In this document: positions 2,452 to 22,970 of the stretch, in pieces
Position numbering within the stretch: the first letter of the stretch is position 1
Layout of the letters: each line of letters opens with the position of its first letter
Source: Candidatus Gorgyraea atricola
GTDB lineage: Bacteria; Omnitrophota; Gorgyraeia; Gorgyraeales; Gorgyraeaceae
NCBI GenBank assembly: GCA_030765235.1
Contig: JAVCCW010000029.1
Coordinates: 219,499 to 283,498, forward strand
Reading direction: 5' to 3'
DNA: 64,000 nucleotides
The notes under the pieces: generated by a model
What the model was told of the DNA's origin: nothing
Seen by the model: the letters and a program-made list of their open reading frames with translations, nothing else
The model's database searches: none
Translations under genes and position numbers: made by a program

Positions 2452-2505
2452 GAGACAAAACTATGAATTTAGGAGTTATTTGTTTGACAGGAGGCAGTGT
2501 ATTAT

Positions 2506-6507: not shown

Positions 6508-7650
6508 ATGAAAAGATTTATCCCATACGCGAGACAGTCAGTGGACTCTGACGATATAAAAGCGGTTGCAGATGTTCTGAGATCTGATTATCTGACGCAA
6601 GGTCCGAAGGTGCATGAATTTGAAAAAAAGGTAGCGGACTATTGCGGCGCAAAGTATGCCGTAGCTTTGAATTCAGGCACGTCAGCTTTACATGCGGCAT
6701 GTTTTGTATCAGGCATTAAGCAGGGGGATGAGGTCATAACATCACCGATAAGTTTTGCGGCATCAAGCAATTGCGTTTTGTATTGCGGTGGTACGCCGAA
6801 ATTTGTGGATATACTTGAAGATACTATAGCGATAGATCCTTGTGAGATTCAAAAGGCAATAACAAAAAGGACAAAAGCCATCATCCCTGTGGATTTTGCA
6901 GGGCATCCTGCGGAATTGAATGAGATAAAAAGAATTGCTTCTAAGTACGGGCTTGTGGTTATAGAAGACGCTGCCCACGCGTTAGGCGCAGAGTATAGGG
7001 GTAATAAAACAGGCTGTGGAAAATATTCAGATATGACGATTTTGAGTTTTCACGCGGTAAAACATATAACCACAGGCGAAGGCGGAATGGTACTGACCAA
7101 TAGAAAAGACCTGTATGATAAATTGGTCATGTTCAGGACACATGGTATCACACGCGATAAAAAGATGCTGTTAGATAAGAATAAGCCTGAATGGTTTTAT
7201 GAGATGCAGTTTCCCGGTTTTAATTACAGGATTGCGGATATCCAGTGCGCTCTGGGATTGAGCCAGATGGAGAAACTTGATTCTTTTGTGAAAATGCGAA
7301 GAAAGATAGCAGGTTTGTATAAAGAGAGTTTCAGTGATATCAACGATATTACCTGTTTGACTGAGAGGAAATACGCTAAATCGAGCTGGCATATTTTTCC
7401 TGTGTGTATAAAGAGGAATAGGGATATGGTTTTTGACAGGCTCAGGCGCAGAGGCATAGGAGCAAATCTTCATTATATCCCGATCTATCTGCACCCGTAT
7501 TATAAAAAGTTGGGATATAAGAAAGGGCTGTGCCCTAAAGCAGAGGGGTATTATAAAAAAACAATAACCCTGCCTCTCTATCCAGTTATGTCTATTAATC
7601 AGGTTGAAAGAGTAATTAACGCTGTTAAAGATGCTGCAAATAGCTTATGA
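6508..7650 (+). CDS. pseC: DegT/DnrJ/EryC1/StrS-family PLP aminotransferase (PseC/LegC-like sugar 4-aminotransferase)
   Basis: 380 aa. Conserved stretches DYLTQGPKVHEFEKK...ALNSGTSALH...SFHAVKHITTGEGG, with the Lys of AVKHI typical of the PLP site. Confidence 0.8.
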   Translation: MKRFIPYARQSVDSDDIKAVADVLRSDYLTQGPKVHEFEKKVADYCGAKYAVALNSGTSALHAACFVSGIKQGDEVITSPISFAASSNCVLYCGGTPKFVDILEDTIAIDPCEIQKAITKRTKAIIPVDFAGHPAELNEIKRIASKYGLVVIEDAAHALGAEYRGNKTGCGKYSDMTILSFHAVKHITTGEGGMVLTNRKDLYDKLVMFRTHGITRDKKMLLDKNKPEWFYEMQFPGFNYRIADIQCALGLSQMEKLDSFVKMRRKIAGLYKESFSDINDITCLTERKYAKSSWHIFPVCIKRNRDMVFDRLRRRGIGANLHYIPIYLHPYYKKLGYKKGLCPKAEGYYKKTITLPLYPVMSINQVERVINAVKDAANSL

Positions 7651-10109
7651 AAATTTTGTTAATTAAGGATTTAATGATGGAATTAAATTCAAAACATTAC
7701 AGCTCTGTTGAAACACAAAAGCGGCCGGAATATCTCGAGTGGGCTGGTTCAAATATAGCTGATATGGCTAATGAATTTGTTCAAAAAAATAAGTTACTGG
7801 ATTCATATTTTATTAAAGGAATGAACAGGATTTTTAGAACCAGCCGTTTTGAACTTTTATTAAAAAGGTGGATAGTGGCTTATTTATGGGATTTTTTCAG
7901 CATGCTGGATGATTTTTTATCATATCATTCACAATTAAACGAGGAATTAGTTTTAGAAGACATGCCTTTAAGCAGATTTGGAATTATGAAATATTATTCC
8001 AGATTCGGTTTAATGTCTAAGATAAAATGGAAAAAACAGGCAAATTTATTGCAGAAAATTTTCAGCATTTCGCTGAAATCTTTAAGTATTTTTTATCTTA
8101 GCTTATCTAAAGGATTGAGGATATATGGGAAAAGAAAACAATACAAAGTAATGCGCGAAGCAATATGGGGCTTATATGATACTGGCGGAAATTATCTTCA
8201 CGACGATTTTTTTATAGACGACAATAAGATTAAAAAAGAAGAGTTTCTTTTATTTTCAAGAGGGATTCCTAAGGAGAAGGGCAGGCTGAAAGGATATCAT
8301 GATGCAAAAAAATCCCCTTATGCCCATTTCGATCTCTCATCCTTGCCATTAGGAATCAACTCTTTTTTATCGCGAATAATTCCTAAATATATTATTTCAG
8401 CCAGTATTGCATTATTTAAAGAAATGTATTCCAGTAACTTTTCGTTGTATTGGAGCGTTTATCTGTCTTTTATATACAGCGCCATGCCATATGAAAAAGT
8501 ATTTTCTAATTATGAGGTAGTTTCTGAGTTAGGGCATAATTATTTTTCTGCCGGTCATATTGCAGAGGCAATTATATGCGAGAATTATGGTACAAAATAC
8601 TATTTAATGCACTTGTCTGACCACGCCGTATCTATAAATAAGTTTCTATTTTCATACTTAGGGTGCGATGGTCTTTTGTTGTGGGGCAAAGCGCATGCTG
8701 AAGATGCAATAATCGATGATAAAATTTTGAAACCTATGGGGTATGTTTTTAAAAAATTTATCAAAGAGGCGATTATTAACAGAGACAAGGTTATAAACGA
8801 GATAGGCATAAAGGTAAAAGGTAAGGTAATAACTTTTTTTGACGAAAGCTTTGGCGGCAGGTGCAAGATGACAGGGGATAATTATGTAACGTTCTGGGAT
8901 ACAGCATTAAGGCTGGCGCAACAAACAGAAAGAGATAATGTCATATTGATAAAGCCCAAAGATCTATCCAGAGCGGACAATCTATCAAGAAATCTGTTAG
9001 AGAAGTTTATTGATATAAAAAATAAGCTGGAAAAGATGGAAAATGTTCGTATCATAACTTCCGATAAGTGGTCTTTTATGGAGGTTATAGGAATATCCGA
9101 TATAGTGGTGACGCAGGGCATGACCAGTTCAGCTACGATAGCTATCATTTGCGGGATTCAGGGCATGTATCTGGATCAGGCGCAATACGACCATCCATTT
9201 TCAAAGGCCTTTAAAGACGCGATAGTATTCGATAATCCAGAAAAAATACTGTTAATGATTCAAAAGATATTAATAGGCAAGGAAAACCCATTAAAAAATA
9301 TTCCGGAGGGCACGTTAAGAGCTTTTGATGAATATCAGGATGAGAGAGGCATAGACCTGTTTCGGGATATTCTGTCAGGAAAAACTCGCAGGCGCGTTGG
9401 AGTCATTATTCAGGCCAGGATGGGCTCAACCAGATTGCCGGGAAAAGCAATGAGGCCCATATTGAATAAACCAATACTGGAAATTTTAGTAGAAAGGCTG
9501 CGAAGATGCAAAAAGACAGATTTGTTGAGCATTGCTACAACGATAAATAAGAATGATGATATTATTGAGGCCTTAGCCCGCAAGCTAAAAGTGGAGTGTT
9601 TTAGAGGCGACGAGGAAGATGTACTTGGTAGATATTACGAGGCAGCTAAGAAATATGGCTTAGACATAATTGTTAGAATTACTTCAGATTGCCCTTTAAC
9701 AGATCCATCCCTGGTTGATGATGTGATAGTATATTATCTTGACAACCCACAGGTAGATTATGTGTCAAATGTTATAAACAGGACATATCCTCGGGGGTTT
9801 GATATAGAGGTGTTTAGTTTTCAAAGCTTAAAAAAGGCCTCAGAAAAAGCTGTTAAGCCGTATCAAAGGGAACATGTTACCCCTTTTATCTATGAAAATA
9901 TGGGATGTCTTAATTATGAAGACGACAGGGATTCTTCAAAATACAGAGTTACAGTAGATACAGTAGAGGACTTTGAGTTAGTTTCGGCCATATACGATAT
10001 TTTAAATAAAGGCGCTCAGTTTGGTTACAGGCAGGTTGTTGACCTGCTTGATTCAAGGCCGGATCTGGTTGCGCTTAATCAGTTTGTGGAGCAAAAAGCT
10101 GTAAAATGA
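7647..10109 (+). CDS. Fusion protein: N-terminal transferase-like domain (about 560 aa) + C-terminal SpsF/PseF-like CMP-sugar cytidylyltransferase
   Basis: C-terminal VGVIIQARMGSTRLPGKAM...ITSDCPLTDP is the PseF/SpsF signature. The N-terminal region carries a KP/HP-type segment, IKPKD...GISDIVVTQGMTSSATIAIICGIQGMYLD. This aligns with ORF 21207 (RFHPAT...GVILYTWTTVCLEALKMGCPAIYLD). The start could also be the internal Met at about 7674. Confidence 0.6.
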   Translation: MKILLIKDLMMELNSKHYSSVETQKRPEYLEWAGSNIADMANEFVQKNKLLDSYFIKGMNRIFRTSRFELLLKRWIVAYLWDFFSMLDDFLSYHSQLNEELVLEDMPLSRFGIMKYYSRFGLMSKIKWKKQANLLQKIFSISLKSLSIFYLSLSKGLRIYGKRKQYKVMREAIWGLYDTGGNYLHDDFFIDDNKIKKEEFLLFSRGIPKEKGRLKGYHDAKKSPYAHFDLSSLPLGINSFLSRIIPKYIISASIALFKEMYSSNFSLYWSVYLSFIYSAMPYEKVFSNYEVVSELGHNYFSAGHIAEAIICENYGTKYYLMHLSDHAVSINKFLFSYLGCDGLLLWGKAHAEDAIIDDKILKPMGYVFKKFIKEAIINRDKVINEIGIKVKGKVITFFDESFGGRCKMTGDNYVTFWDTALRLAQQTERDNVILIKPKDLSRADNLSRNLLEKFIDIKNKLEKMENVRIITSDKWSFMEVIGISDIVVTQGMTSSATIAIICGIQGMYLDQAQYDHPFSKAFKDAIVFDNPEKILLMIQKILIGKENPLKNIPEGTLRAFDEYQDERGIDLFRDILSGKTRRRVGVIIQARMGSTRLPGKAMRPILNKPILEILVERLRRCKKTDLLSIATTINKNDDIIEALARKLKVECFRGDEEDVLGRYYEAAKKYGLDIIVRITSDCPLTDPSLVDDVIVYYLDNPQVDYVSNVINRTYPRGFDIEVFSFQSLKKASEKAVKPYQREHVTPFIYENMGCLNYEDDRDSSKYRVTVDTVEDFELVSAIYDILNKGAQFGYRQVVDLLDSRPDLVALNQFVEQKAVK

Positions 10110-11026
10110 AAATAGTTATTATTACTGAAGGCGGAAGAAACGTAGGATTTGGGCATATAACCCGTTGTTTAGGATTGCGCTCAGAACTTGAGAAGAAAAG
10201 AATAGAAGTTTGTTTCATAATAAATGATGATGTTAACGCAGCAGAAAAGATAAAAGGCAAGAATTTCAAAATATATAAAAATAATGAGGATATATTAAGA
10301 TTAGTTAGAGGATCTGATTGCGCGATAGTCGATTCATATATATTAAACAAAGATGTTTATTTGGAAATCAAGAATTCAGTACGGCTTCTGGTCTCTATAG
10401 ATGACAATAAAAGAATAGAATATCCACCTGGGATGGTTTTGAACGGAGCTGTTTACGCAAAAGACATGGGTTTTATAGAATCAGATGGTATAACTTATTT
10501 ACTTGGTCCGGAATTCATGCCTATGCGGCAGGAATTTGTTAATATAGATAAAAAGAGCACAAAAGAAAACATCGAAAATATCCTTATTTCTTTTGGAGGC
10601 ACTGATTTTAAAAATATGACATCTAAAGTAAAAGATTTTACATCAAAGATATTTCCTGATGCAACTATAAATACAATAGAAGGAGATAAGAAAATCGACT
10701 ATGTTTTAAGACTGATGCAGGAGGCTGATATTGCTATTTCTGCGGGAGGTCAGACCCTTTATGAACTTGCAAGAGTAGGGACTCCTGCTCTTGGTGTGTG
10801 TGTTGCAGATAATCAGCTTAATAATTTAAAAGGGTGGGAAAAGATAGGTTTTTTAAAATTTTGCGGCTGGTATAACTTCGAGAATCTGTTTAAAAATATA
10901 GAAGATGCTTTATTGCATGTCACGAGTAAAGTAGTAAGGAAAGAAATGAAAAAATCAGGGCAGTCCCTTATTGACGGCAGAGGCGCAAAAAGGGTTGCTG
11001 AAAAAATAATAGGAGCATTAAATTGA
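10106..11026 (+). CDS. pseG: PseG/SpsG-like UDP-sugar hydrolase (UDP-2,4-diacetamido-2,4,6-trideoxy-altropyranose hydrolase family)
   Basis: MKIVIITEGGRNVGFGHITRCLGL N-terminus, i.e. the GxGHxxR motif of PseG/SpsG. It lies between the PseF-like and PseI-like genes. ATGA overlap with the upstream gene. Confidence 0.65.
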   Translation: MKIVIITEGGRNVGFGHITRCLGLRSELEKKRIEVCFIINDDVNAAEKIKGKNFKIYKNNEDILRLVRGSDCAIVDSYILNKDVYLEIKNSVRLLVSIDDNKRIEYPPGMVLNGAVYAKDMGFIESDGITYLLGPEFMPMRQEFVNIDKKSTKENIENILISFGGTDFKNMTSKVKDFTSKIFPDATINTIEGDKKIDYVLRLMQEADIAISAGGQTLYELARVGTPALGVCVADNQLNNLKGWEKIGFLKFCGWYNFENLFKNIEDALLHVTSKVVRKEMKKSGQSLIDGRGAKRVAEKIIGALN

Positions 11027-12078
11027 AGACTATTAGAATAGGAAATAGAACCATAGGAGAAGGCCATCCTTGTTTTATTATTGCTGAGGCAGGAAGCAAT
11101 CATGATAGAGAACTGGAGCAGGCATTTAAGCTCATAGATATCGCAAAGGATGCCGGAGCTGATGCCGTTAAATTCCAGACTTACAGCGCCGAGACTCTTT
11201 ATTCCAAGAAGACCCCAAAGCCGGAATATTTAAGGAATAAAAATCTAAGCAGCAGAGATGAAACCTTATGGGATGTGATAAAAAAAATAGAAATGCCCAG
11301 GGAATGGCATATCAAACTTAAACAGTATTGTTTAAAAAGAGACATTATTTTTATGTCAACGCCTTTTGACTTGAAAGCCGTGGATGAGCTTGAGGCCGTG
11401 GATATTTTAGCGTATAAAATAGCTTCTTTTGAGATAACCCACTTGCCTTTGCTCGAGAAAGTTGGAAAAACAGGAAAACCGGTCATCTTGTCAACGGGGA
11501 TGGCCGATATATCTGATATTAAAGATGCTTTAGATATTATTTATAAGACCGGGAATAAACAAGTAGCATTATTACATTGTGCAATAAATTATCCTCCAAG
11601 ATATGAAGATCTGCACCTGAGGGCCATGGATACTATGAAAGAGATTTTTAAAGTGCCTGTAGGATTCTCAGATCATACTTTAGGTATAACTTCTGACATA
11701 GCCGCTGTTGCCAGAGGCGCGTGTATCATAGAGAAGCATTTTACCCTGGACAGAAAACTTCAAGGGCCTGACCATCCGTTTGCTTTGGAACCGCAGGAAC
11801 TGAAAGATATGGTAGGGGCTATAAGGGATACTGAAAAATTTCTCGGTTCTCCTGAAAAGAAAAAGACTGAATCAGAAGAGGAATTATATCGGATAGGGAG
11901 GCGAAGCCTTGTGGCGGCCTGTAATATCCCTAAAGGTGTAAAAATAACCCGTGAGATGCTTGAAGTTAAAAGGCCTGGTTACGGCATAGCGGTAAAATCA
12001 ATGAATGAATTGATAGGACGGGTTGCCGCGAAAAACATAGAAGAAGACGATATTCTGCAATGGGAGATGTTTTCTTAA
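11023..12078 (+). CDS. pseI: N-acetylneuraminate/pseudaminate synthase family (NeuB/PseI)
   Basis: TIGEGHPCFIIAEAGSNH...KFQT match the NeuB-family N-terminus. It starts with TTG at 11023, 7 nt after RBS AGGAG; the protein N-terminus only aligns with this start. Confidence 0.8.
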   Translation: MKTIRIGNRTIGEGHPCFIIAEAGSNHDRELEQAFKLIDIAKDAGADAVKFQTYSAETLYSKKTPKPEYLRNKNLSSRDETLWDVIKKIEMPREWHIKLKQYCLKRDIIFMSTPFDLKAVDELEAVDILAYKIASFEITHLPLLEKVGKTGKPVILSTGMADISDIKDALDIIYKTGNKQVALLHCAINYPPRYEDLHLRAMDTMKEIFKVPVGFSDHTLGITSDIAAVARGACIIEKHFTLDRKLQGPDHPFALEPQELKDMVGAIRDTEKFLGSPEKKKTESEEELYRIGRRSLVAACNIPKGVKITREMLEVKRPGYGIAVKSMNELIGRVAAKNIEEDDILQWEMFS

Positions 12079-14669: not shown

Positions 14670-15443
14670 ATGAAAAATCTGAAAGAAAGATTAAGGAACG
14701 GCGAAATGGTTATCGGGACATGGAACGGCATACCGTCGGCTTCGGTCGTAAATGCAATAGCTTCAAGCGGAGTAGATTTTATAGTCATTGATTCTGAACA
14801 TGGCCCGGTCAGCGTAGAAAAGGCCGAAGACCTTGTAAGGGCATGTGAAGCATGCGGAGTGGATTCGATTATTCGGGTTTCCTCGAATAGCGCCGATCTT
14901 ATTTTAAGAGCGCTTGATATAGGGACTAAAGGAGTTCAGGTCCCCCATGTTTCTACTAAAGAAGAAGCAGAGCATGTTGTCAGATGTTCGAAATATTATC
15001 CCGAAGGAGAAAGAGGGTATTCCCCTTTTACAAAAGCAGGTAATTATGGGATCAAATCTTCGGGTCATGCAAAAAGATCTAACGAAAACACCACGGTAGT
15101 TCTTAATATAGAAGGTTCCGAAGGATTGAAAAACATTAAGGATATAGCTAGTGTTCGTGGAATAGATGTAATATTTATAGGACCATACGATCTTTCGCAG
15201 TCGTTAGGAAAACCTGGAGAGGTAAATGATCCAGAAGTTATTAAGGGTATCCGTGAAAGCGTTAAAATAACTAAAAATAAAGGCGTTGCCTGCGGTTCAT
15301 TTGCTTGTGACATGAAATACATGGAATTGCTGATCGATTGCGGAGTGCAATATGTGACATATATGGTAGATTCTGCTTTGATTGCTGCTACTTATAAAGA
15401 TATAGTAAACGTATTCAATGCAAAAAAAGAAATAGAGGGGTAA
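14670..15443 (+). CDS. HpcH/HpaI-family class II (pyruvate) aldolase
   Basis: 257 aa. MKNLKERLRNGEMVIGTW...DFIVIDSEHGP matches the 2-keto-3-deoxy-acid aldolase family (HpcH/GarL/YfaU). Confidence 0.75.
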   Translation: MKNLKERLRNGEMVIGTWNGIPSASVVNAIASSGVDFIVIDSEHGPVSVEKAEDLVRACEACGVDSIIRVSSNSADLILRALDIGTKGVQVPHVSTKEEAEHVVRCSKYYPEGERGYSPFTKAGNYGIKSSGHAKRSNENTTVVLNIEGSEGLKNIKDIASVRGIDVIFIGPYDLSQSLGKPGEVNDPEVIKGIRESVKITKNKGVACGSFACDMKYMELLIDCGVQYVTYMVDSALIAATYKDIVNVFNAKKEIEG

Positions 15444-17174
15444 ATGAGCGATATTAAAACTCATGCTTTTGAGATATTGGATTGTACCATAAGAGACGGT
15501 GGCTATTTAAACAACTGGGATTTTGACAGAAAAGTGGTTAAAGAGCTTTGCCGCAATCTTTCCAGGACAGGTGTGGATATTATTGAAATCGGATTCAGAA
15601 ATAAGCCAAAGGCCGGTACGGGATTATGGTATTCTGTCCCTGAGGATGTTATCAATGATTTGTTCAAGGATGTTTCAGGAATAAAAGTATCATTGATGGT
15701 TGATTGCGACAAATGCGACTTATCTCTTATTCCGCAGTCAAAGCATAGTTTTGTAAATATGTACAGGGTGGCATGTCATAAGGATAAGATATTAGAGGCA
15801 ATCGATATTTGCCGGAAGATCAAAAAAAGAGGATATGAAGTTTCTATTCAGCTAATGGGGATTGTGGGTTATACGGAGGAAGATTTTTCTTTTATAAAGA
15901 AGCCTATTTCAGAATCATCAATTGACTATCTTTATTTTGCCGATAGCTATGGTTCGCTTTTTCCGCGTGATATAGAAAGATATATAGAAAAGTTGAAACC
16001 TCTGAATAAAAAAATAGGTTTTCATGCGCACAATAGTCTCCAGCTTGCTTTTGCCAATACACTGGAGGCGCTTAATTGCGGAGTGGATATAGTAGATGGT
16101 ACTGTATGCGGTATGGGAAGGGGATCAGGTAACCTCCCTATGGAAGTGTTGATAATATACCTTGAGAAAACATTAAGCCGTAAAAAGTACAATTCAATGC
16201 CTGTATTGGATCTTATAGACCGTTATTTTATTGATCTAAAAAACAAGTTGAAATGGGGTTACAGCCTTCCTTACATGTTATCCGGTATATTCGAGGTCCA
16301 TCCGAGCTATGCCAAGCAATTGATAGATTATCATGAATACAATGTAGACGATATGGTAAAAGTCTTTGAGGTCGTAAAAGGACTTGCGCCAGTGGGATTT
16401 AAAAAAGACATAATGGATAAAATTATATCAAGCGGTTTTGTAAGCTCTTTTGGTAAATCGGAAAATCCAGACCATGATACAGAAGATAATCTACGAATAC
16501 AGCCACCTCTTTATAGAAACAGGCATGAGGGAAAGGATTTTTTGATACTTGCTAATGGTCCCAGCCTTAAAGAGCATAAAAAAGAAATAGATGAATTTAT
16601 AGAAAAATATAATCCTGTAGTTATGGGTGCTAATTATTTAGGTGGATTGTTTAAGCCGCATTATCATGCATTTAGCAATAAGAAACGATTTATCAATTAT
16701 GTTGAACATGTTGATGTGGATTCAAAGCTTCTGATATCCGGCAGTTTCGAGGATGATTTTATAAAAGACTATACGAATATGGAATATGAAAGTATCGCGC
16801 ATTTTAGTGGCACCTCGGATAATTTCAGGATAGAAGATGGCGTAATCAATTCAAATTGCAGGACCGTGTCGATATTGTTGACGGCAGTCGCTATTGTTAT
16901 GGGCGCAAAAAGAATATTCATAGCAGGAATGGATGGATATAAGAGTAAAGAACATTTTCTTTCAAAAAATGTACATTTTTATAAAGAATCCGAGGAAGCT
17001 GATAATTTTAAACTATTGATCGAAAAGCACAATTGGAATGAAAAACTACTTAGCCAGATCAATTCGTTTTTAATTGAAAACAACAAAGAAGGGCTTCATA
17101 TTATAACCCCTTCAAGTCATAGTTATTTTTACAGCAGTATATATAATTGGATAAAACAATATGACAAGGTTTGA
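15444..17174 (+). CDS. Fusion: HMGL-like DRE-TIM metallolyase domain + GT42/MptE(DUF115)-like sialyltransferase-fold domain
   Basis: The N-terminus ILDCTIRDGGYLNNWDF...HAHNSLQLAFANTLEAL is typical of the HMGL-like/4-hydroxy-2-oxovalerate aldolase family. The C-terminal segment DFLILANGPSLKE...RTVSILLTAVAIVMGAKRIFIAGMDGY resembles Campylobacter Cst-II/Maf-type GT42 domains (IIAGNGPSLKE...AVAIALGYKEIYLSGIDFY). Confidence 0.55.
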   Translation: MSDIKTHAFEILDCTIRDGGYLNNWDFDRKVVKELCRNLSRTGVDIIEIGFRNKPKAGTGLWYSVPEDVINDLFKDVSGIKVSLMVDCDKCDLSLIPQSKHSFVNMYRVACHKDKILEAIDICRKIKKRGYEVSIQLMGIVGYTEEDFSFIKKPISESSIDYLYFADSYGSLFPRDIERYIEKLKPLNKKIGFHAHNSLQLAFANTLEALNCGVDIVDGTVCGMGRGSGNLPMEVLIIYLEKTLSRKKYNSMPVLDLIDRYFIDLKNKLKWGYSLPYMLSGIFEVHPSYAKQLIDYHEYNVDDMVKVFEVVKGLAPVGFKKDIMDKIISSGFVSSFGKSENPDHDTEDNLRIQPPLYRNRHEGKDFLILANGPSLKEHKKEIDEFIEKYNPVVMGANYLGGLFKPHYHAFSNKKRFINYVEHVDVDSKLLISGSFEDDFIKDYTNMEYESIAHFSGTSDNFRIEDGVINSNCRTVSILLTAVAIVMGAKRIFIAGMDGYKSKEHFLSKNVHFYKESEEADNFKLLIEKHNWNEKLLSQINSFLIENNKEGLHIITPSSHSYFYSSIYNWIKQYDKV

Positions 17175-18162
17175 AATAGCACAAGAGCTGTTAAACAAAA
17201 AGAAATTCTTTAAGCTTGTTTGCGGCGCAGGTAACGAAGACGCAAAGGAAGTCAGGAAGATTGTTTTTGTCTATGCGCTTGCAGGCGCCAAATGCATGGA
17301 TGTCTCTGCCAATGTGGATGTTGTTAAACATGCAGCCATAGGTATTCAGGATGCATTTGATTATGCAGGCAAGATAGGAAGGCAGTTATTGATACGTCCT
17401 TTTATCAATGTGAGCATAGGAATGAGGGGAGACCCGCATATTAGGAAAGCGATGATTACAGATAAGTGCGTTAAATGCAGAGTATGTATTGCAGAGTGCC
17501 CTACAAATGCCATAGATGATGACTTTAAGATCATAGAGGCCAGGTGCATAGGATGCGGAAGTTGCGAGTCAGCGTGTAGCTATAACGCTATAAAATTCTA
17601 CCATAAGAATAAGGACTTAAAAGCTATTCTGGAGGAATGCAGGGAATGCGGGGTTGAGCAGATGGAGTTGCACGCTGCAGTGCCTGATACAAGGTCTATA
17701 TTCGACGAATGGAAAATGATAAACAATATAATAAAAGATAATTATGTAAGCATGTGCTTGGACCGCCTGCATTTATCCGATTCTGCGTTGAAACGCAGGA
17801 TAAAAAATGCAAAGTCTATATCAGGCAACAGGCTTATAGTGCAGGCAGACGGCGTGCCCATGAGTGGAAGCAAGGATGATTTCAATACCACTCTGCAGGC
17901 GGTTGCCATTGCGGATATAATCATGAAACAAAGGTTAGATGTAAAGGTTTTACTGTCAGGCGGTACAAATAGTTTGACTACAAAATTAGCGGATATGAGC
18001 GGCGTTGCATATAATGGTGTCTCTGTCGGAACGTTTGCCAGAAATGTTATAAAGGAATTGATCGGGGAAGAAGATTTTATGAAAAAGGACGATAAAGTGA
18101 GAGAGGCGGTTAATACCGCGCATACATTAGTAAGGAGTAATATCGGAGAGGTAGTCTGGTAA
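17161..18162 (+). CDS. Protein with 2x[4Fe-4S] ferredoxin-type domain inserted in an alpha/beta (possibly TIM-like) scaffold
   Basis: Two CxxCxxCxxxCP-type motifs, CVKCRVCIAECP and CIGCGSCESAC. The flanking regions have no recognisable family. Confidence 0.55.
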   Translation: MTRFEIAQELLNKKKFFKLVCGAGNEDAKEVRKIVFVYALAGAKCMDVSANVDVVKHAAIGIQDAFDYAGKIGRQLLIRPFINVSIGMRGDPHIRKAMITDKCVKCRVCIAECPTNAIDDDFKIIEARCIGCGSCESACSYNAIKFYHKNKDLKAILEECRECGVEQMELHAAVPDTRSIFDEWKMINNIIKDNYVSMCLDRLHLSDSALKRRIKNAKSISGNRLIVQADGVPMSGSKDDFNTTLQAVAIADIIMKQRLDVKVLLSGGTNSLTTKLADMSGVAYNGVSVGTFARNVIKELIGEEDFMKKDDKVREAVNTAHTLVRSNIGEVVW

Positions 18163-18926
18163 TGGTGAATATTGCGTTTGGCAATAAGGTAATCAATGAT
18201 ATTGAGTTATTTGTATTCGATAAGGATGGCACACTCATTGATTTATATAATTACTGGTATTACATGATTGAGATGCGGGCAAAAGATTTGTGTTCTTTTT
18301 ACAAGTTGGATGAGGAGCCGCATAAGAATAGTCTGATGTCTGAGATGGGGATTAATTTGGAAAAGAGAAGGCTGAAACCAGAAGGTCCTGTGGGCATTTT
18401 ACCCAGGGCGATTGTGCAAAAGGCTGCAGAGGATTATCTCGTTAAGCTTGACTACCAGGATGTCTCCAGGGTTTGCTTTGATATATTTAAGAAAGTCGAT
18501 GATAAGTCTTTATTCTTATTGGACAAACTTATAGTCCCTATCAAAGGTGCTATGGAACTTTTAAAGAATATAAAAGAGAAAAAGACTATGGTCGCCATAG
18601 CGACAACTGATAAAACAGAGAGAGCTGAACTTGCTGTAAAATTTTTAAATATAGGAAACTTAGTGGATATTGTCGTGGGCGAAGATAAGGTGAAAAATTC
18701 AAAACCAGCACCAGATATGTTGATGTATATACTGAAGAAACTTGATGTATCTCCGCGCAATTCTATCATGGTAGGAGATGCGAACACTGATGTCCTGATG
18801 GGCAAAAACGCAAACCTAAAGGCCTCAATAGGCGTCTGCACTGGGCTGACAAATAAGGATAAATTGCTAGAAATAACCCCTTATGTAGTTGATGATGTAT
18901 CGAAGATAAAAATATATGACAGCTAA
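18162..18926 (+). CDS. HAD-superfamily hydrolase (phosphatase, subfamily IA-like)
   Basis: Motif I VFDKDGTL and motif IV VGDANTDVLMG. Confidence 0.7.
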   Translation: MVNIAFGNKVINDIELFVFDKDGTLIDLYNYWYYMIEMRAKDLCSFYKLDEEPHKNSLMSEMGINLEKRRLKPEGPVGILPRAIVQKAAEDYLVKLDYQDVSRVCFDIFKKVDDKSLFLLDKLIVPIKGAMELLKNIKEKKTMVAIATTDKTERAELAVKFLNIGNLVDIVVGEDKVKNSKPAPDMLMYILKKLDVSPRNSIMVGDANTDVLMGKNANLKASIGVCTGLTNKDKLLEITPYVVDDVSKIKIYDS

Positions 18927-20469
18927 TAAAGAGATAATACTTGTTAATTTACCTCCGGCTAGGAATTATAAGTATGAGAATTCCGGTTCTCTGTATCCTG
19001 CTACCGGGATAATGGTAATAGGTGCGATATTAAAGAAAAGAAAGTTTTCAGTAAAGATCGTTGACGGCGCCTTGATTCAGGAATATGAAAAAAGGGTTTT
19101 GGAGAGCATATCCGAGAGGACTATGTTCGTGGGGTTTTCAGCCATGACTTCCCAGATAGTCATGGGATATGAGCTGGCAAAGAAGATAAAAGAGAAATGG
19201 CCTCGTTTATATATAGTATTTGGCGGTGTGCACTCAACCCTGTATCCTGAACAAACGGTCTCTAATCCGTATATTGATATTGCCGTGATCAACGAAGGGT
19301 CTAGAACTGTTTTAGAGATCATAGAGCATATTGAAGGACATGTCCAATTGGAGGCAATAAAAGGCATATCGTTTTGTGATTCAGAGGGCAATGTTAAGAT
19401 TAATATACCCAGGGATTTGGATGATATATCAGAGATTCCCCATTTTGATTTTGAACTCTTGGATTTGCCGAGATATCTTAATGCCAGAAGCGTATATGAA
19501 AGAGAATTAAACCTTGATGGCAGTAAGAATATACGACTAATGCCTATTCTTACTGGCTTAGGCTGTTGTTTTAGGTGCGCCTTTTGCATAAACGTGATTT
19601 TAAAAAGGCATTACAGAGCGCGTTCTGCCGCATCCATTGTCGAAGAGATCAAAAGATTGCAGTCCAGATATGGCGCAAATGCCTTTTTATTCCTGGACGA
19701 AGATTTTTGTATTAACAAAAAAAGACTGGCAGACTTCATTAAACTGGCAAAGGACGAGAATATCAAGTTTTTGGCAAGGATATGGGCCAGGGTCTCTTAT
19801 TTCAGGCAGGATTCTTTCAAGAATATTTTGCCGGATATGGAAAAGATCGGTATAAAATCTATTGCAATGGGGGCAGAAAGCGGATCACAGAAGATGCTGG
19901 ATTATTTACATAAGGATATAAAATGCGAAGACATAAAGAACGCTGCTGTGGAGCTTTCCAAATTCAATATAACCCCGAGATTTTCCTTTATGACAGGGAT
20001 GGACGGAGAAAATAAAGATGATACCATCTCCACGTACAGGCTTTGCGGAGAACTATTAAAGATCAATCCCATCACTGACATTGCAGGCCCTTTCACTTTC
20101 CGTTATTATCCAGGTTCTCCCATATTTAACCAGGGTATGAAGAGGTTTAATATAAGCTTAAGTAAATCTATAGAAGACTGGAAGGATTCCTTGAATGATG
20201 ACGGATCTTTGATTGTTGACACCACCCGGCTTATCTGGCCCGGGTTTTCCAAATACAGCGAATCAATGAATAGTTATATCAATATTTATTTGCATAAGTT
20301 GAATAGGCTGTCATTGCGTAATAGATTTTTGGTCAAGATTATCAGAAAACTAGTCTTGTGGCGATTGATGCACGGAGAACACTGTTATGCTATAGATTAT
20401 TACACCCTTCGTTTATTGGCAAAACTTGAAACTTTTTTACTAAAACTGTATCGTAGTATTTATAAATGA
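18916..20469 (+). CDS. B12-binding radical SAM enzyme (class B radical SAM, candidate C-methyltransferase or rearrangement enzyme)
   Basis: N-terminal B12-binding-like domain (IVFGGVHSTLYPEQ), then radical SAM cluster motif CCFRCAFC (CxxxCxxC). Confidence 0.8.
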   Translation: MTANKEIILVNLPPARNYKYENSGSLYPATGIMVIGAILKKRKFSVKIVDGALIQEYEKRVLESISERTMFVGFSAMTSQIVMGYELAKKIKEKWPRLYIVFGGVHSTLYPEQTVSNPYIDIAVINEGSRTVLEIIEHIEGHVQLEAIKGISFCDSEGNVKINIPRDLDDISEIPHFDFELLDLPRYLNARSVYERELNLDGSKNIRLMPILTGLGCCFRCAFCINVILKRHYRARSAASIVEEIKRLQSRYGANAFLFLDEDFCINKKRLADFIKLAKDENIKFLARIWARVSYFRQDSFKNILPDMEKIGIKSIAMGAESGSQKMLDYLHKDIKCEDIKNAAVELSKFNITPRFSFMTGMDGENKDDTISTYRLCGELLKINPITDIAGPFTFRYYPGSPIFNQGMKRFNISLSKSIEDWKDSLNDDGSLIVDTTRLIWPGFSKYSESMNSYINIYLHKLNRLSLRNRFLVKIIRKLVLWRLMHGEHCYAIDYYTLRLLAKLETFLLKLYRSIYK

Positions 20470-21203
20470 GAACAATAGGAATTATACCTTCGCGATTGCA
20501 GTCATCACGTCTTCCTGACAAAGCCCTTATTGACATAGAAGGCTTGCCTATGATAGTCCATGTGTTTAAGAGGGCGCAGTTGGCTTCTTCCTTAAACGAG
20601 GTATTTGTGGCTACTGATAACAAGGAGATTCATGATATTGTGCTTAAATACGGTGGCAAGGCAATAATGACTTCATCCAAGCACGAGACCGGAACGGATC
20701 GTATAGCTGAGGCAGTTAGTGATATGGACGTAGATATAGTGGTCAATATCCAGGGAGATGAAGCGCTTTTAAATCCCGAGCATGTGGATAGCGCCGTAAG
20801 GCCTCTTAGAGAAGATAAGGATGTGCAGATTTCTGTACTTGTCGCGCCTTATTCAATAAAGAATTCAAAATCAGACATAAAGGCTATCCTTGATCTGAAT
20901 TGCAATATTTTATACTGCTCAAGAGCGGACTTACCGAGTGACGCGCGCACAGAAATAAAAACAATGTGGAAGATGTGTTTTATAGTGCCTTTTCGCAAGA
21001 ATTTTCTGCTAAAGATTGCTTCCTGGGACCAGACACCTTTGGAAAAGATTGAGTTTAATGAATACCTTAGGATATTAGAACATGGGTATAACATAAAGGC
21101 AGTGCCTGTTGAAAATGCGCATATAAGCGTTGATACTCCGCAGGACCTTATAAAGGTCAGGAAATTAATGAAATCTGACAAGATAAAAGAAAAGTACTTC
21201 TAA
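20466..21203 (+). CDS. 3-deoxy-manno-octulosonate cytidylyltransferase family (KdsB/KpsU-like CMP-ulosonic acid synthetase)
   Basis: MRTIGIIPSRLQSSRLPDKALIDIEGLPMIVHV...VVNIQGDEALL closely parallels KdsB (IPARYASTRLPGKPL...VNVQGDEP). ATGA overlap with the upstream gene. Confidence 0.8.
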   Translation: MRTIGIIPSRLQSSRLPDKALIDIEGLPMIVHVFKRAQLASSLNEVFVATDNKEIHDIVLKYGGKAIMTSSKHETGTDRIAEAVSDMDVDIVVNIQGDEALLNPEHVDSAVRPLREDKDVQISVLVAPYSIKNSKSDIKAILDLNCNILYCSRADLPSDARTEIKTMWKMCFIVPFRKNFLLKIASWDQTPLEKIEFNEYLRILEHGYNIKAVPVENAHISVDTPQDLIKVRKLMKSDKIKEKYF

Positions 21204-21206
21204 TTA

Positions 21207-22970
21207 ATGAAAAGACTTTTATTGTTAAAAAATCCGGATGATGTATCAAGCAAACTTAATATAAATATGTTTGATTATGTTTTGATAGATCTGGATAATT
21301 TTAATTTAAAAAATATTTTAGACAAAGATGATATTGAAAAAGAATATAAGAATTTTATAGCGTCTATGAGCAGTAATATCTCATCAGATTATTGGTGGGC
21401 AAGTAATTTATCCGAGAAAAATTCTTTTACTTCTAAATTATTTGTCAGGTTATATAAATTAGCGTGCCTCGATGCAAAAATAAAAAAATATAGAAATAAA
21501 GATATTGCGGTCGTGTGTTCAGATTTAGCATTGTCTAAGCAGATAATTTTTAACTACAAGAAGAATTTTGTAGTATCAAATCTCTGCTTTAGTCCTCTGG
21601 AAGCTAATATTAAAGCCTTGTTGTGTAAATTAATTGGAATTTTAGCTCAAATTAAAAAGGCTTGTTACGAATATAAGAATTTATTATTTACAAGGTGTAT
21701 TTTATTTACAAGAAGAACAGCTATTCTCAAGAAAGATGATTATGTAGTCCTCAGAACATGGTGCGATAACCGGAGTTACAAGTCGGGTTCGTACTTCGAC
21801 CCTTATTTTAAAAATCTCCTATCTTTTTTTTCGGGCCAAAAAAGAAACATATTGATATTTGCCGGTATATTGTCTGATTATAGGGATATGATAAAAAAAT
21901 TCAAAGAAGACACAGAGAATATCATTATCCCGTTTAATTTTTACCTCAAAGGCCTTGATATATTTAAATGTGTTTTTAACGTGTATTTTAAGAGACCTTC
22001 AATAAAGGGTAATATTTTTTTCTGTGATTGCAATGTAAAATTTCTTGTTTTCGAGGAGTTGTTACAGGATATGAACGGGACACGTTTTTTCGATGCTCTT
22101 TTACAGTATTATTCGTGCACTAGCTTGACGCGATCTATAAGAATAGAAAGATTTATATATACATTTGAAAATTATGCATGGGAAAAAATGAGCATTTTAG
22201 GATTACGCTATGGTGATCCAAATATCAAAGTATTAGGATTTCAGCATGCTTTTGTTTCAAAAAACAGTTTTAAATATTTTCCGGGTTTCATTGAAAGAGA
22301 TAGAATGCCCCTTCCTAACAAGATTATTACAATGGGAAGGCGGACTTTAGACATAATGAACCGATTAGGTTGTTATCCCGATAATATTTTTTCGGTAGGA
22401 TGTGCGTTACGTCAAAATTACTTGTCTCCATCAAAGCTTTTGCCTCGCAGGACAACCAGAGATATTTTTGTAGCTTTGACTATTACGGTAGAAGATGCCG
22501 TTAAAGTATTGCGCTTTCTTTTTGATTCCGGGTTAGGAAAATATCCGGAAAAATTATACATTAGATTTCATCCTGCGACATGCGTAAATGAAGTTATGAA
22601 AGATTTGGGATTTAAGATGCCGTCCAATTTTATTATTTCAAACAATCTTTCCGTAACTGAGGAAATAGAACGGTGTGGAGTTATTCTATATACTTGGACT
22701 ACTGTATGTCTTGAGGCTTTAAAGATGGGGTGTCCTGCAATATATTTGGACGTTAATTATCCTTTGGAGGTAGATCCTCTTTTTGAATGCAACAGCAAGA
22801 TCAAGGATTCTTGCAGCAATCCGGCTGAACTTAGAACAAGGATAAATAAAATCTTGAATATAGACGATAATTTGTTTTACGAGGAGCTTAGAAAAACACA
22901 GGATTATCTGAAAGATTATTTTGTACCTGTAAGCGAGGATAATATGAAGATTTTTTCCGAGGTTTTATAA
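21207..22970 (+). CDS. Large hypothetical transferase-like protein (GT-B-like, HP motif; candidate ulosonic-acid/polymer transferase)
   Basis: 587 aa. The C-terminal region IRFHPATCVNEV...GVILYTWTTVCLEALKMGCPAIYLD can be aligned with the N-terminal domain of ORF 7647 and with ORF 4321. It lies directly downstream of the KdsB-like gene, like kpsU followed by kpsC/kpsS. Confidence 0.4.
   Translation: MKRLLLLKNPDDVSSKLNINMFDYVLIDLDNFNLKNILDKDDIEKEYKNFIASMSSNISSDYWWASNLSEKNSFTSKLFVRLYKLACLDAKIKKYRNKDIAVVCSDLALSKQIIFNYKKNFVVSNLCFSPLEANIKALLCKLIGILAQIKKACYEYKNLLFTRCILFTRRTAILKKDDYVVLRTWCDNRSYKSGSYFDPYFKNLLSFFSGQKRNILIFAGILSDYRDMIKKFKEDTENIIIPFNFYLKGLDIFKCVFNVYFKRPSIKGNIFFCDCNVKFLVFEELLQDMNGTRFFDALLQYYSCTSLTRSIRIERFIYTFENYAWEKMSILGLRYGDPNIKVLGFQHAFVSKNSFKYFPGFIERDRMPLPNKIITMGRRTLDIMNRLGCYPDNIFSVGCALRQNYLSPSKLLPRRTTRDIFVALTITVEDAVKVLRFLFDSGLGKYPEKLYIRFHPATCVNEVMKDLGFKMPSNFIISNNLSVTEEIERCGVILYTWTTVCLEALKMGCPAIYLDVNYPLEVDPLFECNSKIKDSCSNPAELRTRINKILNIDDNLFYEELRKTQDYLKDYFVPVSEDNMKIFSEVL

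Follow-up and report, generated by a model that had tools for sequence, protein, structure and literature searches.

An aldolase-like DRE-TIM domain fused to an MptE/Maf/GT42-fold domain in Candidatus Gorgyraea atricola, a possible signature enzyme of a CMP-ulosonate cassette

Ulosonic acids, among them Kdo and sialic, pseudaminic, and legionaminic acid, are sugars of key importance at the cell surface, and to our knowledge the known bacterial routes to them all begin with PEP-dependent synthases of the KdsA or NeuB type. The two halves of the protein described here resemble different systems. The closest solved relative of the N-terminal half is BVU_2661 from Bacteroides (Phocaeicola) vulgatus (PDB 3DXI, 'N-terminal domain of a putative aldolase'; 31% identity), which we take to belong to the CDD group DRE_TIM_HOA_like; it is a structural-genomics entry, and no paper on its function was found in the literature. 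The closest characterised relatives of this half are pyruvate aldolases of the DmpG/BphI type. For the C-terminal half the systems to be compared are Maf enzymes, which have its fold and transfer Kdo from CMP-Kdo (bioRxiv 10.1101/2020.06.03.131540), and the sialyltransferase Cst-II, the lid of which becomes ordered by CMP (PMC4202792). No functional description of the fusion architecture or of its family was found in the literature.

The window, that is, the whole stretch of 64,000 nucleotides, contains an open reading frame at 15444..17174 (+ strand, as are all features given below) that encodes 576 aa with a DRE-TIM aldolase-like domain and an MptE/Maf/GT42-fold domain. It starts with ATG directly 3' of the stop of the upstream gene, and its 3' end overlaps the downstream gene by 14 nt. 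A preliminary description made from the letters alone had read the product as an HMGL-like TIM barrel followed by a Cst-II/Maf-like domain. The motifs quoted there (ILDCTIRDGGY, HAHNS, ILANGPSLKE, and RTVSILLTAVAIVMGAKRIFIAGMDGY) are all present in the translation, and the two-domain description is correct, well beyond chance, as follows from Pfam, PDB/profile matches, and Foldseek results for both halves; the C-terminal half, on which that description had staked itself, has both a GT42/MptE-like signal and the corresponding fold. An artefact of gene calling by which two genes were merged was ruled out, since the frame is unbroken and a length of ~575 aa is common to more than 100 homologue clusters. 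The AF2 model of the whole protein (pLDDT 83) shows, between the two domains, a helical subdomain behind the barrel (16194..16439, aa 251–332; helices 252–329) and a disordered, poorly conserved linker (16440..16493, aa 333–350; pLDDT <50, no consensus in the alignment columns). 3DXI and DmpG-type aldolases end in a helical part to which this subdomain corresponds; the 3DXI alignment reaches aa 307, and the Foldseek alignments, of ~305–340 columns, include it.

The N-terminal HMGL-like DRE-TIM barrel (15468..16193, aa 9–250) matches PF00682 above the gathering score (aa 9–250, E = 3.8e-26, 92.5 bits; cut-off 29). Its metal ligands are D18 (15495–15497) and H194/H196 (16023–16031), joined by R17; these residues align with R17, D18, H200, and H202 of DmpG, and conservation of the ligands, which the preliminary description had proposed as a check, is complete, D18, H194, H196, and R17 being invariant in 47 homologues. 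Among solved structures 3DXI is the best match (E = 1.7e-48; Foldseek TM 0.89), followed by DmpG-type aldolases at ~1e-14. The cut-offs of the DmpG/BphI models are not reached (TIGR03217, 89.6 vs 286; NF006049, 109.5 vs 229). Within the signature RDGGY, Tyr21 takes the position of the catalytic His21 of DmpG (1NVM alignment), so that the aldolase chemistry may differ. Stand-alone relatives of the N-terminal domain (L053–L065, ~36% identity) sit in unrelated contexts, e.g., at L065, and are uninformative.

The C-terminal MptE/Maf/GT42-fold domain (16494..17171, aa 351–576) has one Pfam family match, to MptE-like (PF01973), which remains below the cut-off of 34.6 bits both in the whole protein (aa 360–497, E = 9.4e-7, 29.2 bits) and for the domain alone (31.6 bits; E = 1e-6 to 1e-7 overall). 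Of 60 relatives in the family of this domain, 48 match PF01973 at E ≤ 0.01 (best 9.4e-12), and five match CST-I (PF06002) weakly (best 4e-4); the protein itself has no PF06002 match in Pfam at E ≤ 1. In the PDB, neither the single domain sequence nor a narrow profile of 18 sequences (A2) retrieved Cst-II; the matches obtained were SteA (E = 0.3–1.6) and a chorismate mutase attributed to chance. With a wider profile of 60 sequences (A4), the PDB matches are led by Cst-II, Cst-I, and the 9C08 sialyltransferase (E = 4e-5 to 8e-5); MjHPPK scores E = 0.017, only the first beta-alpha-beta unit of ~50 residues being covered, and the Maf structure 5MU5 E = 0.62. A2 aligned globally to Cst-II in hhalign has Prob 80% and E = 1.6e-6. 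Fifteen very long proteins from the search of representative genomes, with cadherin-like repeats and a chance match of 40 residues, were discarded. The domain was modelled separately because Foldseek with the full-length model yielded TIM-barrel matches only. The separate model has the modified GT-A/MptE fold; the scores of MjHPPK and SteA against it are no worse than those of Cst, and the fold alone cannot separate a sialyltransferase-type from a pyrophosphokinase-type function.

Motifs of the domain are ANGPS (16551–16565), GAN (397), YH..SN(412)..R(415), CRT (472–474), and GMDGY (16926–16940), followed by a predicted flexible lid at ~aa 500–520 (H511/Y513/E515), by H529/N532, and by ITPS (553–557). 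The donor-site motifs of GT42 are recognisable, with N371-G-P-S, N397, N412, D497, and Y499 aligned to their Cst-II counterparts by MAFFT, and hhalign supports the GNGPS and D154-x-Y156 blocks. The alignment with Cst-II that had been drawn by eye is right in its two motif blocks; the similarity is remote and at the level of profiles, not close. Across 107 family sequences, conservation reaches 90% or more at G372, N397, N412, and D497; the counterparts of Cst-II G10, N31, N51, G152, and D154 are conserved throughout the family, those of R129 and Y156 within the fusion clade. The segment aa 500–520, of low confidence in AF2, lies at the position of the Cst-II lid. The counterpart of the catalytic His of GT42 depends on the alignment: hhalign pairs His188 with E515 and His184 with H511 (the latter pair is also found by MAFFT), whereas His188 falls on H529 when the sequences are aligned by hand without gaps. 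In stand-alone relatives of the domain, conservation of R473 and H529 is lost.

The author of the preliminary description had not seen such a fusion described. As an architecture it is nonetheless frequent in public genomes, with more than 120 clusters of full-length homologues (53–90% identity, ~575 aa), named 'aldolase catalytic domain-containing protein' or 'DUF115 domain-containing protein', and the fusion occurs in 48 GTDB species-representative genomes of many bacterial phyla and archaea. Cultured Leisingera (L. caerulea S216, plasmid NZ_CP081095) carries a plasmid copy, and Bacteroides/Prevotella have a divergent 510-aa fusion, the N-terminal domain of which is PDB 3DXI, solved in 2008.

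Function was approached through gene neighbourhoods at 36 informative species-representative loci. Directly upstream of the fusion in the window lies an HpcH/HpaI-family class II pyruvate aldolase (14670..15443; PF03328, E = 2.2e-36; 25/36 loci), below the cut-offs of the HpaI, GarL, and YfaU models. Directly downstream, as in most loci, is an LdpA-like protein (LdpA/DUF561-type; 17161..18162; LdpA_C and Fer4; 28/36 loci) into which a 2x[4Fe-4S] ferredoxin module is inserted; the protein scores 150 bits against CircClkLdpA, below the cut-off, DUF561 is a faint Pfam match on the L003/L004 orthologue, and its PDB matches are ferredoxins only. Then follow a HAD-IA phosphatase (18162..18926; HAD_2/Hydrolase, PpaX-/PGP-like; 31/36 loci) and, as a variable member, a B12-binding radical SAM enzyme (18916..20469; PF02310 and PF04055; 20/36 loci), which matches BchE- and PhpK-like models below their cut-offs and is probably a C-methyltransferase. 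The most constant partner is a KdsB/KpsU-like cytidylyltransferase of the CMP-3-deoxy-ulosonate synthetase type (20466..21203; 30/36 loci). It passes the NCBIfam Kdo-cytidylyltransferase subfamily models (NF009905, 255.5 vs 255; NF003952, 236.6 vs 193), falls just below the TIGR00466 equivalog (151.4 vs 155.2), and has KpsU (1GQ9, E = 9.3e-43) as its best solved match. Counting any CTP_transf_3 cytidylyltransferase, usually KdsB-like, 32/36 loci have one; in several MAGs it lies directly 3' of the fusion, on the Leisingera plasmid the order is fusion, 'Kdo cytidylyltransferase', HAD, and in Bacteroides/Prevotella it is fusion, CTP_transf_3, PfkB kinase. The last member, 3' of the cytidylyltransferase, is a conserved ~590-aa protein (unk587; 21207..22970; 23/36 loci) with no match in Pfam or the PDB and a weak match below cut-off to TIGR04326 'surface carbohydrate biosynthesis protein' (E = 1.9e-14).

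The reading that we tentatively put first, although it is a little less likely than not, is that the fusion is the signature enzyme of a conserved, self-contained cassette making a Kdo-like 3-deoxy-2-ulosonic acid, activated with CMP and destined for a surface glycan, with the C-terminal domain as its transferase. The cassette would comprise the HpcH aldolase, the fusion, the LdpA-like Fe-S protein, the HAD phosphatase, sometimes the B12-radical SAM enzyme, the KdsB/KpsU-like cytidylyltransferase, and the ~600-aa protein. In the first step, the N-terminal domain would act as a divalent-metal pyruvate aldolase, joining pyruvate and an aldose, probably an aldose phosphate, to a 4-hydroxy-2-oxo (3-deoxy-2-ulosonic) acid. 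The phosphate would then be taken off by the HAD enzyme, as by KdsC, and the CMP-sugar made by the KdsB/KpsU-like enzyme, for which the family assignment is clear and the substrate presumed. In the last step, the C-terminal domain, with its Cst/Maf donor-binding fold and Cst-II-like motifs, would bind the CMP-sugar and transfer the sugar acid to an acceptor, and the fusion would thereby couple an aldol step that is thermodynamically weak to the final stage of the pathway. Against this reading count the two aldolases and the Fe-S protein of the cassette, which leave members without a role in the scheme, and the fusion of the first and last steps of a pathway, which is unusual. Near the cytidylyltransferase are also encoded the ~600-aa protein, GT2/GT4 proteins, and, in Prevotella, a weakly polysialyltransferase-like protein; the true transferase could be any one of them, and the ~600-aa protein is an alternative candidate.

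From the sequences it is doubtful that all fusions act as catalytic transferases, because in Leisingera and Bacteroides the GPS motif is replaced and the lid segment behind DGY is much shorter, and in Bacteroides the N31 equivalent is absent as well; both keep the G-x-DGY nucleotide-binding block. The same pattern would suit a C-terminal domain that is regulatory or a sensor, binding the CMP-sugar end product or CMP/CTP and feeding back on the committed aldolase step. The DRE-TIM isopropylmalate and citramalate synthases (LeuA, CimA) carry C-terminal regulatory domains, and GNE is inhibited by CMP-Neu5Ac; the C-terminal position, the flexible linker, and the other candidate transferases encoded next to the cytidylyltransferase are consistent with such a role. 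We nevertheless think a regulator unlikely. In the clade of the window the invariant polar residues are many (H361, D365, H408, N412, R415, H453, D497, Y499, H529, and N532), more than simple ligand binding usually requires, and close stand-alone homologues of ~240 aa occur in glycan loci without any aldolase, from which the domain family appears to be basically enzymatic.

It is slightly less likely still that the C-terminal domain is a kinase or pyrophosphokinase, similar to MptE/HPPK or thiamine pyrophosphokinase, that would phosphorylate the aldehyde or aldol product with ATP, the HAD enzyme removing the phosphate later. MptE-like is the sole Pfam family matched, the HAD partner is near-constant and has the pyrophosphatase PpaX as its best NCBIfam match, and the Bacteroides-type loci, in which the domain is degraded, have a PfkB kinase instead. 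The Pfam name does not decide between the two functions, as PF01973 also covers the Maf glycosyltransferases; at the profile level the sialyltransferases outscore MjHPPK ~400-fold. Fused and stand-alone forms alike have a CTP_transf_3 enzyme as their tightest genomic partner, one stand-alone homologue overlapping the stop of a CTP_transf_3 gene and one homologue fragment being fused to the start of a CTP_transf_3 domain; this family (KdsB, NeuA) acts on free ulosonic acids and does not need a sugar phosphate.

That the domain is instead the transferase for a CMP-pseudaminic-type sugar made by the upstream PseB/PseC/PseI-like genes, the TIM barrel tailoring or merely binding the sugar, as the preliminary description had favoured, is improbable: the upstream genes do exceed the PseB and PseC equivalog cut-offs and include a NeuB-type synthase, Maf enzymes with the fold of the domain do transfer pseudaminic or legionaminic acid, and NeuB-like genes do occur near the fusion at L006, L012, L027, L030, and L051, but a NeuB/PseI-like gene lies within 10 kb at only 7/36 loci (KdsB-like, 30/36; CTP_transf_3, 32/36; HAD, 31/36), Pse genes are absent around the Leisingera and Bacteroides fusions, and the window offers other candidates beside its Pse genes, namely a 406-aa ORF and the 578-aa N-terminal part of an 820-aa PseF-like fusion, neither with a Pfam match. 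The link of the fusion to the Pse genes is weak, and on the reading preferred above they would be a separate module of one glycan island.

Returning to the preferred cassette with the C-terminal domain as transferase, a wider reading is possible but rather unlikely: the fusion may mark an unrecognised PEP-independent route to a CMP-activated, possibly C-methylated, 3-deoxy-2-ulosonic acid, in which a DRE-TIM aldolase carries a GT42-like transferase. With the same reserve, this route might be spread over Omnitrophota, Planctomycetota, Desulfobacterota, candidate-phyla bacteria, Roseobacters, Bacteroidales (in divergent form), and several archaea. If true, the use of a pyruvate aldolase fused to a sialyltransferase-fold domain, alongside an activating enzyme resembling KpsU, would be a new biosynthetic logic, and the sugar would probably be new too; many uncultured cells would carry an unknown acidic sugar on their surfaces, and thousands of 'aldolase catalytic domain-containing' or 'DUF115' proteins would gain a function, including the 2008 structural-genomics target from a major gut Bacteroides. 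If the C-terminal domain were a regulator or kinase, it would be an instructive re-use of a glycosyltransferase fold. Leisingera caerulea, Phocaeicola vulgatus, and Prevotella are cultured hosts in which direct testing is possible.

Among known systems, BVU_2661 shares the RDGGY and HxH signature. The 510-aa protein of this type (P0270) is collinear with the fusion over aa 9–499 in BLASTP, its second domain matches the profile of the C-terminal domain family (hhalign Prob 94%, E = 1.4e-7), and a CTP_transf_3 gene adjoins it in capsule loci. It differs by an overall identity of 27%, by a C-terminal domain without GPS motif, N31 equivalent, Arg, or lid, and by a PfkB kinase as partner instead of LdpA-like, HAD, or HpcH proteins. 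DmpG/BphI share the barrel with helical subdomain, the Asp and His-x-His metal ligands, and the Arg; they act in aromatic catabolism and have the catalytic His21, whereas the fusion has Tyr, a biosynthetic glycan context, and no DmpF-like acylating aldehyde dehydrogenase among the neighbour genes examined.

With Cst-II and Cst-I the fusion has in common the blocks GNGPSLKE and R-x-T-S...AVAI..G.K.I...G.D.Y, the equivalents of N31, N51, and D154, and a flexible lid behind the DxY block. It differs in its ~20% identity, the missing PF06002 match, and the uncertain counterpart of His188, in being joined to an aldolase and having no membrane-association tail, and in a donor that is probably a Kdo-like sugar and not Neu5Ac. 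Maf (Magnetospirillum Maf, PDB 5MU5) belongs to the same Pfam family, PF01973, and uses CMP-Pse, CMP-Leg, CMP-Neu5Ac, and also CMP-Kdo as donors; it is ~600–650 aa long and recognises flagellin through additional domains at its N and C termini, whereas here only the ~230-aa core is found, and the neighbouring genes covered, from 0 to 37 kb, serve glycan synthesis and include no flagellin gene. A further group for comparison is formed by MptE, the archaeal 6-hydroxymethyl-7,8-dihydropterin pyrophosphokinase (PDB 8SD5), the thiamine pyrophosphokinases, and SteA; here the sequence match spans the first ~50 residues only (E = 0.017), and the glycan-locus context and CTP_transf_3 coupling of the fusion do not fit pterin or thiamine metabolism. 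The Kdo pathway (KdsA-KdsC-KdsB/KpsU) and the NeuB-type pathways offer the same series of synthase, HAD phosphatase, CTP_transf_3 cytidylyltransferase, and transferase. In the cassette the place of the PEP-dependent KdsA or NeuB would be filled by a pyruvate-dependent DRE-TIM aldolase, the HAD enzyme is of type IA where KdsC is of type IIIA, and an HpcH aldolase, an LdpA-like Fe-S protein, and a B12-radical SAM enzyme are added.

The open reading frame at 15444..17174 (+) is uninterrupted, encodes 576 aa and contains in translation all motifs quoted in the preliminary description; its ATG lies immediately 3' of the stop codon of the upstream gene, and its 3' end shares 14 nt with the next gene. 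The observed fusion of an N-terminal HMGL-like domain to a C-terminal MptE-like domain was confirmed. Of the interpretation first attached to it, the architecture and the fold have stood; the newness of the fusion and its assignment to the pseudaminic acid (Pse) pathway have not. The architecture is already known to databases, and the protein belongs to a large family present there without functional description. A search of 5.8 billion proteins with the fusion gave 2,479 matches, the best 120 clusters all being ~570–595 aa with 53–90% identity, most with both Pfam domains; names in the listed clusters are 'aldolase catalytic domain-containing protein', 'DUF115 domain-containing protein' and '4-hydroxy 2-oxovalerate aldolase'. 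Among GTDB species representatives both domains are encoded at 48 loci, all from MAGs, the lineages including bacteria (Omnitrophota, Planctomycetota, Elusimicrobiota, Desulfobacterota, Nitrospirota, Chloroflexota, Margulis-/Saganbacteria, Parcubacteria, Clostridia) and archaea (Hydrothermarchaeota, Methanobacteriota, Thermoplasmatales). More distant two-domain versions come from cultured organisms: a 536-aa protein on a Leisingera caerulea plasmid (C-domain against the wide profile described below, Prob 96.9%, E = 1.4e-10) and the 510-aa BVU_2661 type of Bacteroides/Prevotella (Prob 94%). An N-domain query of the latter type gave 6,566 matches at E ≤ 1e-20, nearly all of the 120 listed clusters being 509–521 aa. 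No paper on an aldolase plus MptE-like/DUF115 architecture was found in the literature.

The N-terminal domain matches PF00682 (HMGL-like; aa 9–250, E = 3.8e-26, 92.5 bits, well over cut-off), as had been proposed. The top-ranked NCBIfam models for the fusion are 4-hydroxy-2-oxovalerate aldolases, with scores far under their cut-offs. Among solved structures the one closest to it is 3DXI, titled 'N-terminal domain of a putative aldolase (BVU_2661) from Bacteroides vulgatus', at E = 1.7e-48 and a Foldseek TM of 0.89; DmpG/BphI-type pyruvate aldolases (~1e-14) come next, and then isopropylmalate, homocitrate and citramalate synthases. Among 47 aligned full-length homologues there is no variation at R17, D18, H194, H196 or N197, and because these DRE-TIM Arg and Asp/His-x-His metal-site residues align with the corresponding residues of DmpG, the domain appears to be an active C-C lyase or aldolase that depends on metal. 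It is not a DmpG orthologue; the catalytic His21 of DmpG is replaced by a nearly invariant Tyr (signature RDGGY), which BVU_2661 shares.

For the C-terminal half, described earlier as GT42/MptE-like, the Pfam scan returned PF01973 (MptE-like, the former DUF115/Maf_flag10) at aa 360–497 (E = 9.4e-7) with 29.2 bits, below the gathering score of 34.6, and no match to CST-I (PF06002). Nothing significant was found in the PDB with the domain as a single sequence or as a narrow profile. A scan over 1.84 billion cluster representatives, with only this domain as query, gave 375 clusters at E ≤ 1e-3, a count inflated because long repeat proteins match by chance; the best 150 included 95 stand-alone proteins of 200–300 aa (25–40% identity), 10 full-length fusions and 15 spurious cadherin-like repeat proteins. 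Among the matches rejected were P0209, P0218, P0219, P0224, P0232 and others, of 700–5,700 aa, each matching aa ~100–145 of the domain 5–17 times by chance; P0232 showed cadherin-like/Ig-like repeats on inspection (FRVSDGKTNSS..VSISV). A wide profile of the domain and 59 stand-alone relatives (48 of the 60 members with a Pfam MptE-like match, 5 with a CST-I match) gave as best PDB matches Cst-II, Cst-I and the LOS sialyltransferase 9C08 (E = 4e-5 to 8e-5), then SteA (5e-3), archaeal HPPK/MptE (0.017) and Maf (0.62). With a Cst-II sequence confirmed to be identical to 1RO7, hhalign gave a local E of 1.2e-4 and, globally, Prob 80% and E = 1.6e-6 over 181 columns. Significant Foldseek matches (E < 0.005) of the AF2 model (pLDDT 88.5, pTM 0.88) were only SteA, MjHPPK, Maf, Cst-II and ST8SiaIII. 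The predicted structure thus confirms an MptE/Maf/GT42 fold, which is common to CMP-sugar transferases and ATP pyrophosphokinases.

In the alignment with Cst-II, N371-G-P-S of the fusion corresponds to N9-G-P-S, N397 to N31, N412 to N51, G495 to G152, D497 to D154 and Y499 to Y156; R473 corresponds to R129 in hhalign and is shifted by one residue in MAFFT. Across the whole C-domain family, conservation reaches 90% or more at G372, N397, N412 and D497; that of R473 and H529 is limited to the fusion clade. H511 lies opposite Cst-II His184 in both hhalign and MAFFT. The methods disagree on the catalytic His188, placing opposite it E515 (global hhalign) or H529 (gap-free manual alignment, with H529-x-x-N532 opposite H188-x-x-N191). 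The segment after DGY (~aa 500–520), predicted with low confidence in AF2, takes the position of the Cst-II lid, which becomes ordered when CMP binds (PMC4202792).

The window is a large glycan-synthesis island, almost all genes being on the plus strand, and the fusion lies in a block of its own, apart from the upstream Pse genes. This cassette, syntenic across unrelated phyla, contains an HpcH/HpaI aldolase directly before the fusion (14670, +) and, directly downstream, an LdpA-like 2x[4Fe-4S] protein (17161–18162, +; 150 bits, below cut-off), followed by a HAD-IA phosphatase (18162, +), a B12-radical SAM enzyme (18916, +), a KdsB/KpsU-like cytidylyltransferase (20466–21203, +; above two NCBIfam Kdo-cytidylyltransferase subfamily cut-offs; KpsU 1GQ9, 9e-43) and a ~590-aa protein (21207–22970, +) without Pfam or PDB match and with a weak TIGR04326 match, which could be a novel transferase or polymerase acting on the sugar of the cassette; GT2 and GT4 genes come after it. 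Of the species-representative loci, 36 have 5 kb or more of downstream sequence; of these, any CTP_transf_3 is found within 10 kb of the fusion in 32, a HAD phosphatase in 31, a KdsB-like enzyme in 30, an LdpA-like protein in 28, an HpcH aldolase in 25, the ~590-aa protein, there following the KdsB-like gene, in 23 and the B12-radical SAM enzyme in 20. The LdpA-like gene, whose product is related to the cyanobacterial circadian redox sensor LdpA, also occurs at two homologue loci (L001, 11730–12731; L003, 11731–12723) and is directly downstream of the fusion in 28 of the 36; no description of a role of its family in sugar biosynthesis was found in the literature. At a marine (TARA) relative (L003/L004, 700–5800), split transketolase-like genes stand ahead of the cassette, together with genes for two radical SAM/SPASM enzymes, a transaldolase/FSA-family aldolase and a second HAD, hinting at supply of a branched-chain or unusual aldose precursor.

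In Leisingera the fusion is followed by a '3-deoxy-manno-octulosonate cytidylyltransferase' and a HAD hydrolase, in an ABC-transporter-type polysaccharide locus; in Bacteroides/Prevotella by CTP_transf_3 and a PfkB kinase, then in Prevotella by a weak polysialyltransferase-like gene. Stand-alone C-domain homologues are also found in glycan loci, one overlapping the stop codon of a CTP_transf_3 gene. Another (P0240, 283 aa) runs straight into the first 50 residues of CTP_transf_3, where the sequence ends. This is either a natural fusion of a transferase-fold domain with a cytidylyltransferase or the product of two neighbouring genes joined where a contig stops.

Gene annotation of the island covers 0–37 kb. 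Upstream of the fusion, PseB and PseC are genuine equivalogs and are accompanied by a NeuB-type synthase and by PseG-, PseH- and PseF-like genes. The exact nonulosonic acid made is uncertain, because the synthase (11023–12078, +) passes NeuB_NnaB (N-acetylneuraminate synthase; 408.2, cut-off 399.65) and falls just below PseI (338.4, cut-off 340.25) despite the clear PseB and PseC. Between the PseC and PseG-like genes, an 820-aa protein (7647–10109, +) ends in ~235 aa of CTP_transf_3; its N-terminal ~580 aa have no Pfam match and a weak match to TIGR04417, 'PFTS motif polysaccharide biosynthesis protein' (E = 3e-4), and the protein may join a hitherto unrecognised nonulosonic-acid transferase to the enzyme that activates its sugar. 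With 3591–4328 (PseF-like, 178 bits, cut-off 205.7) and 20466–21203, the island holds three separate CTP_transf_3 domains, which implies a minimum of two, and possibly three, distinct CMP-activated acidic sugars within one glycan. A WbuX-type N-acetyl sugar amidotransferase (1249–2451, +; TIGR03573, 347.8 bits, cut-off 203) is followed by a CBS-pair/sugar-1-phosphate nucleotidyltransferase fusion (2497–3606, +); since L001 repeats this trio upstream of its cassette (WbuX-like at 31% identity, CBS-NTP_transferase, CTP_transf_3), a second linked sub-module is suggested. At 22–37 kb are at least 8 GT2/GT4 glycosyltransferases, a PMT_2/ArnT-like protein, an RmlD-like reductase and FkbM-type methyltransferases. 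Over 1–64000, ORFs of at least 150 aa are nearly all on the plus strand, the exception, besides short ORFs overlapping plus-strand genes, being a methyltransferase at 27305–28072 (−); GC skew is positive throughout.

Our leading hypothesis is that the C-domain would act as a CMP-sugar-dependent transferase, given the best profile matches to GT42, the conserved Cst donor-site residues, the lid-like segment, the tight coupling to cytidylyltransferases even of stand-alone C-domains, and the precedent of Maf enzymes, which use CMP-Kdo (bioRxiv 10.1101/2020.06.03.131540). A serious rival is a regulatory role, in which the domain would sense the CMP-sugar for the enzyme of the committed step; in its favour, the C-domains of Leisingera and Bacteroides have lost the GPS motif together with most of their lid, and other transferase candidates lie adjacent. 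An MptE-type kinase is also a serious reading, as its fold scores equally well and the partners include HAD or PfkB enzymes. The transferase for the upstream Pse pathway, as first proposed, is the least supported reading because co-occurrence with Pse/NeuB genes is low (NeuB-like within 10 kb in 7 of the 36 loci).

To our knowledge, the substrates that known CTP_transf_3 enzymes activate are without exception 2-keto-3-deoxy sugar acids, namely Kdo and the sialic, pseudaminic and legionaminic acids; the product of a pyruvate aldolase, a 4-hydroxy-2-oxo acid, is of the same compound class. With the fused domain as a CMP-sugar-dependent transferase, the cassette would make a Kdo-like sugar acid independently of KdsA/NeuB, its B12-radical SAM, HpcH and LdpA-like partners serving in tailoring of the acid or in precursor supply, and the pathway is experimentally tractable in cultured hosts. 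Because CTP_transf_3 substrates and pyruvate-aldolase products share a class, the recurring DRE-TIM aldolase fusion, HAD phosphatase and KdsB-like enzyme mirror KdsA-KdsC-KdsB, and making a CMP-ulosonic acid by way of a pyruvate aldolase that carries a GT42-like domain would be a new variant of the known ulosonic-acid pathways.
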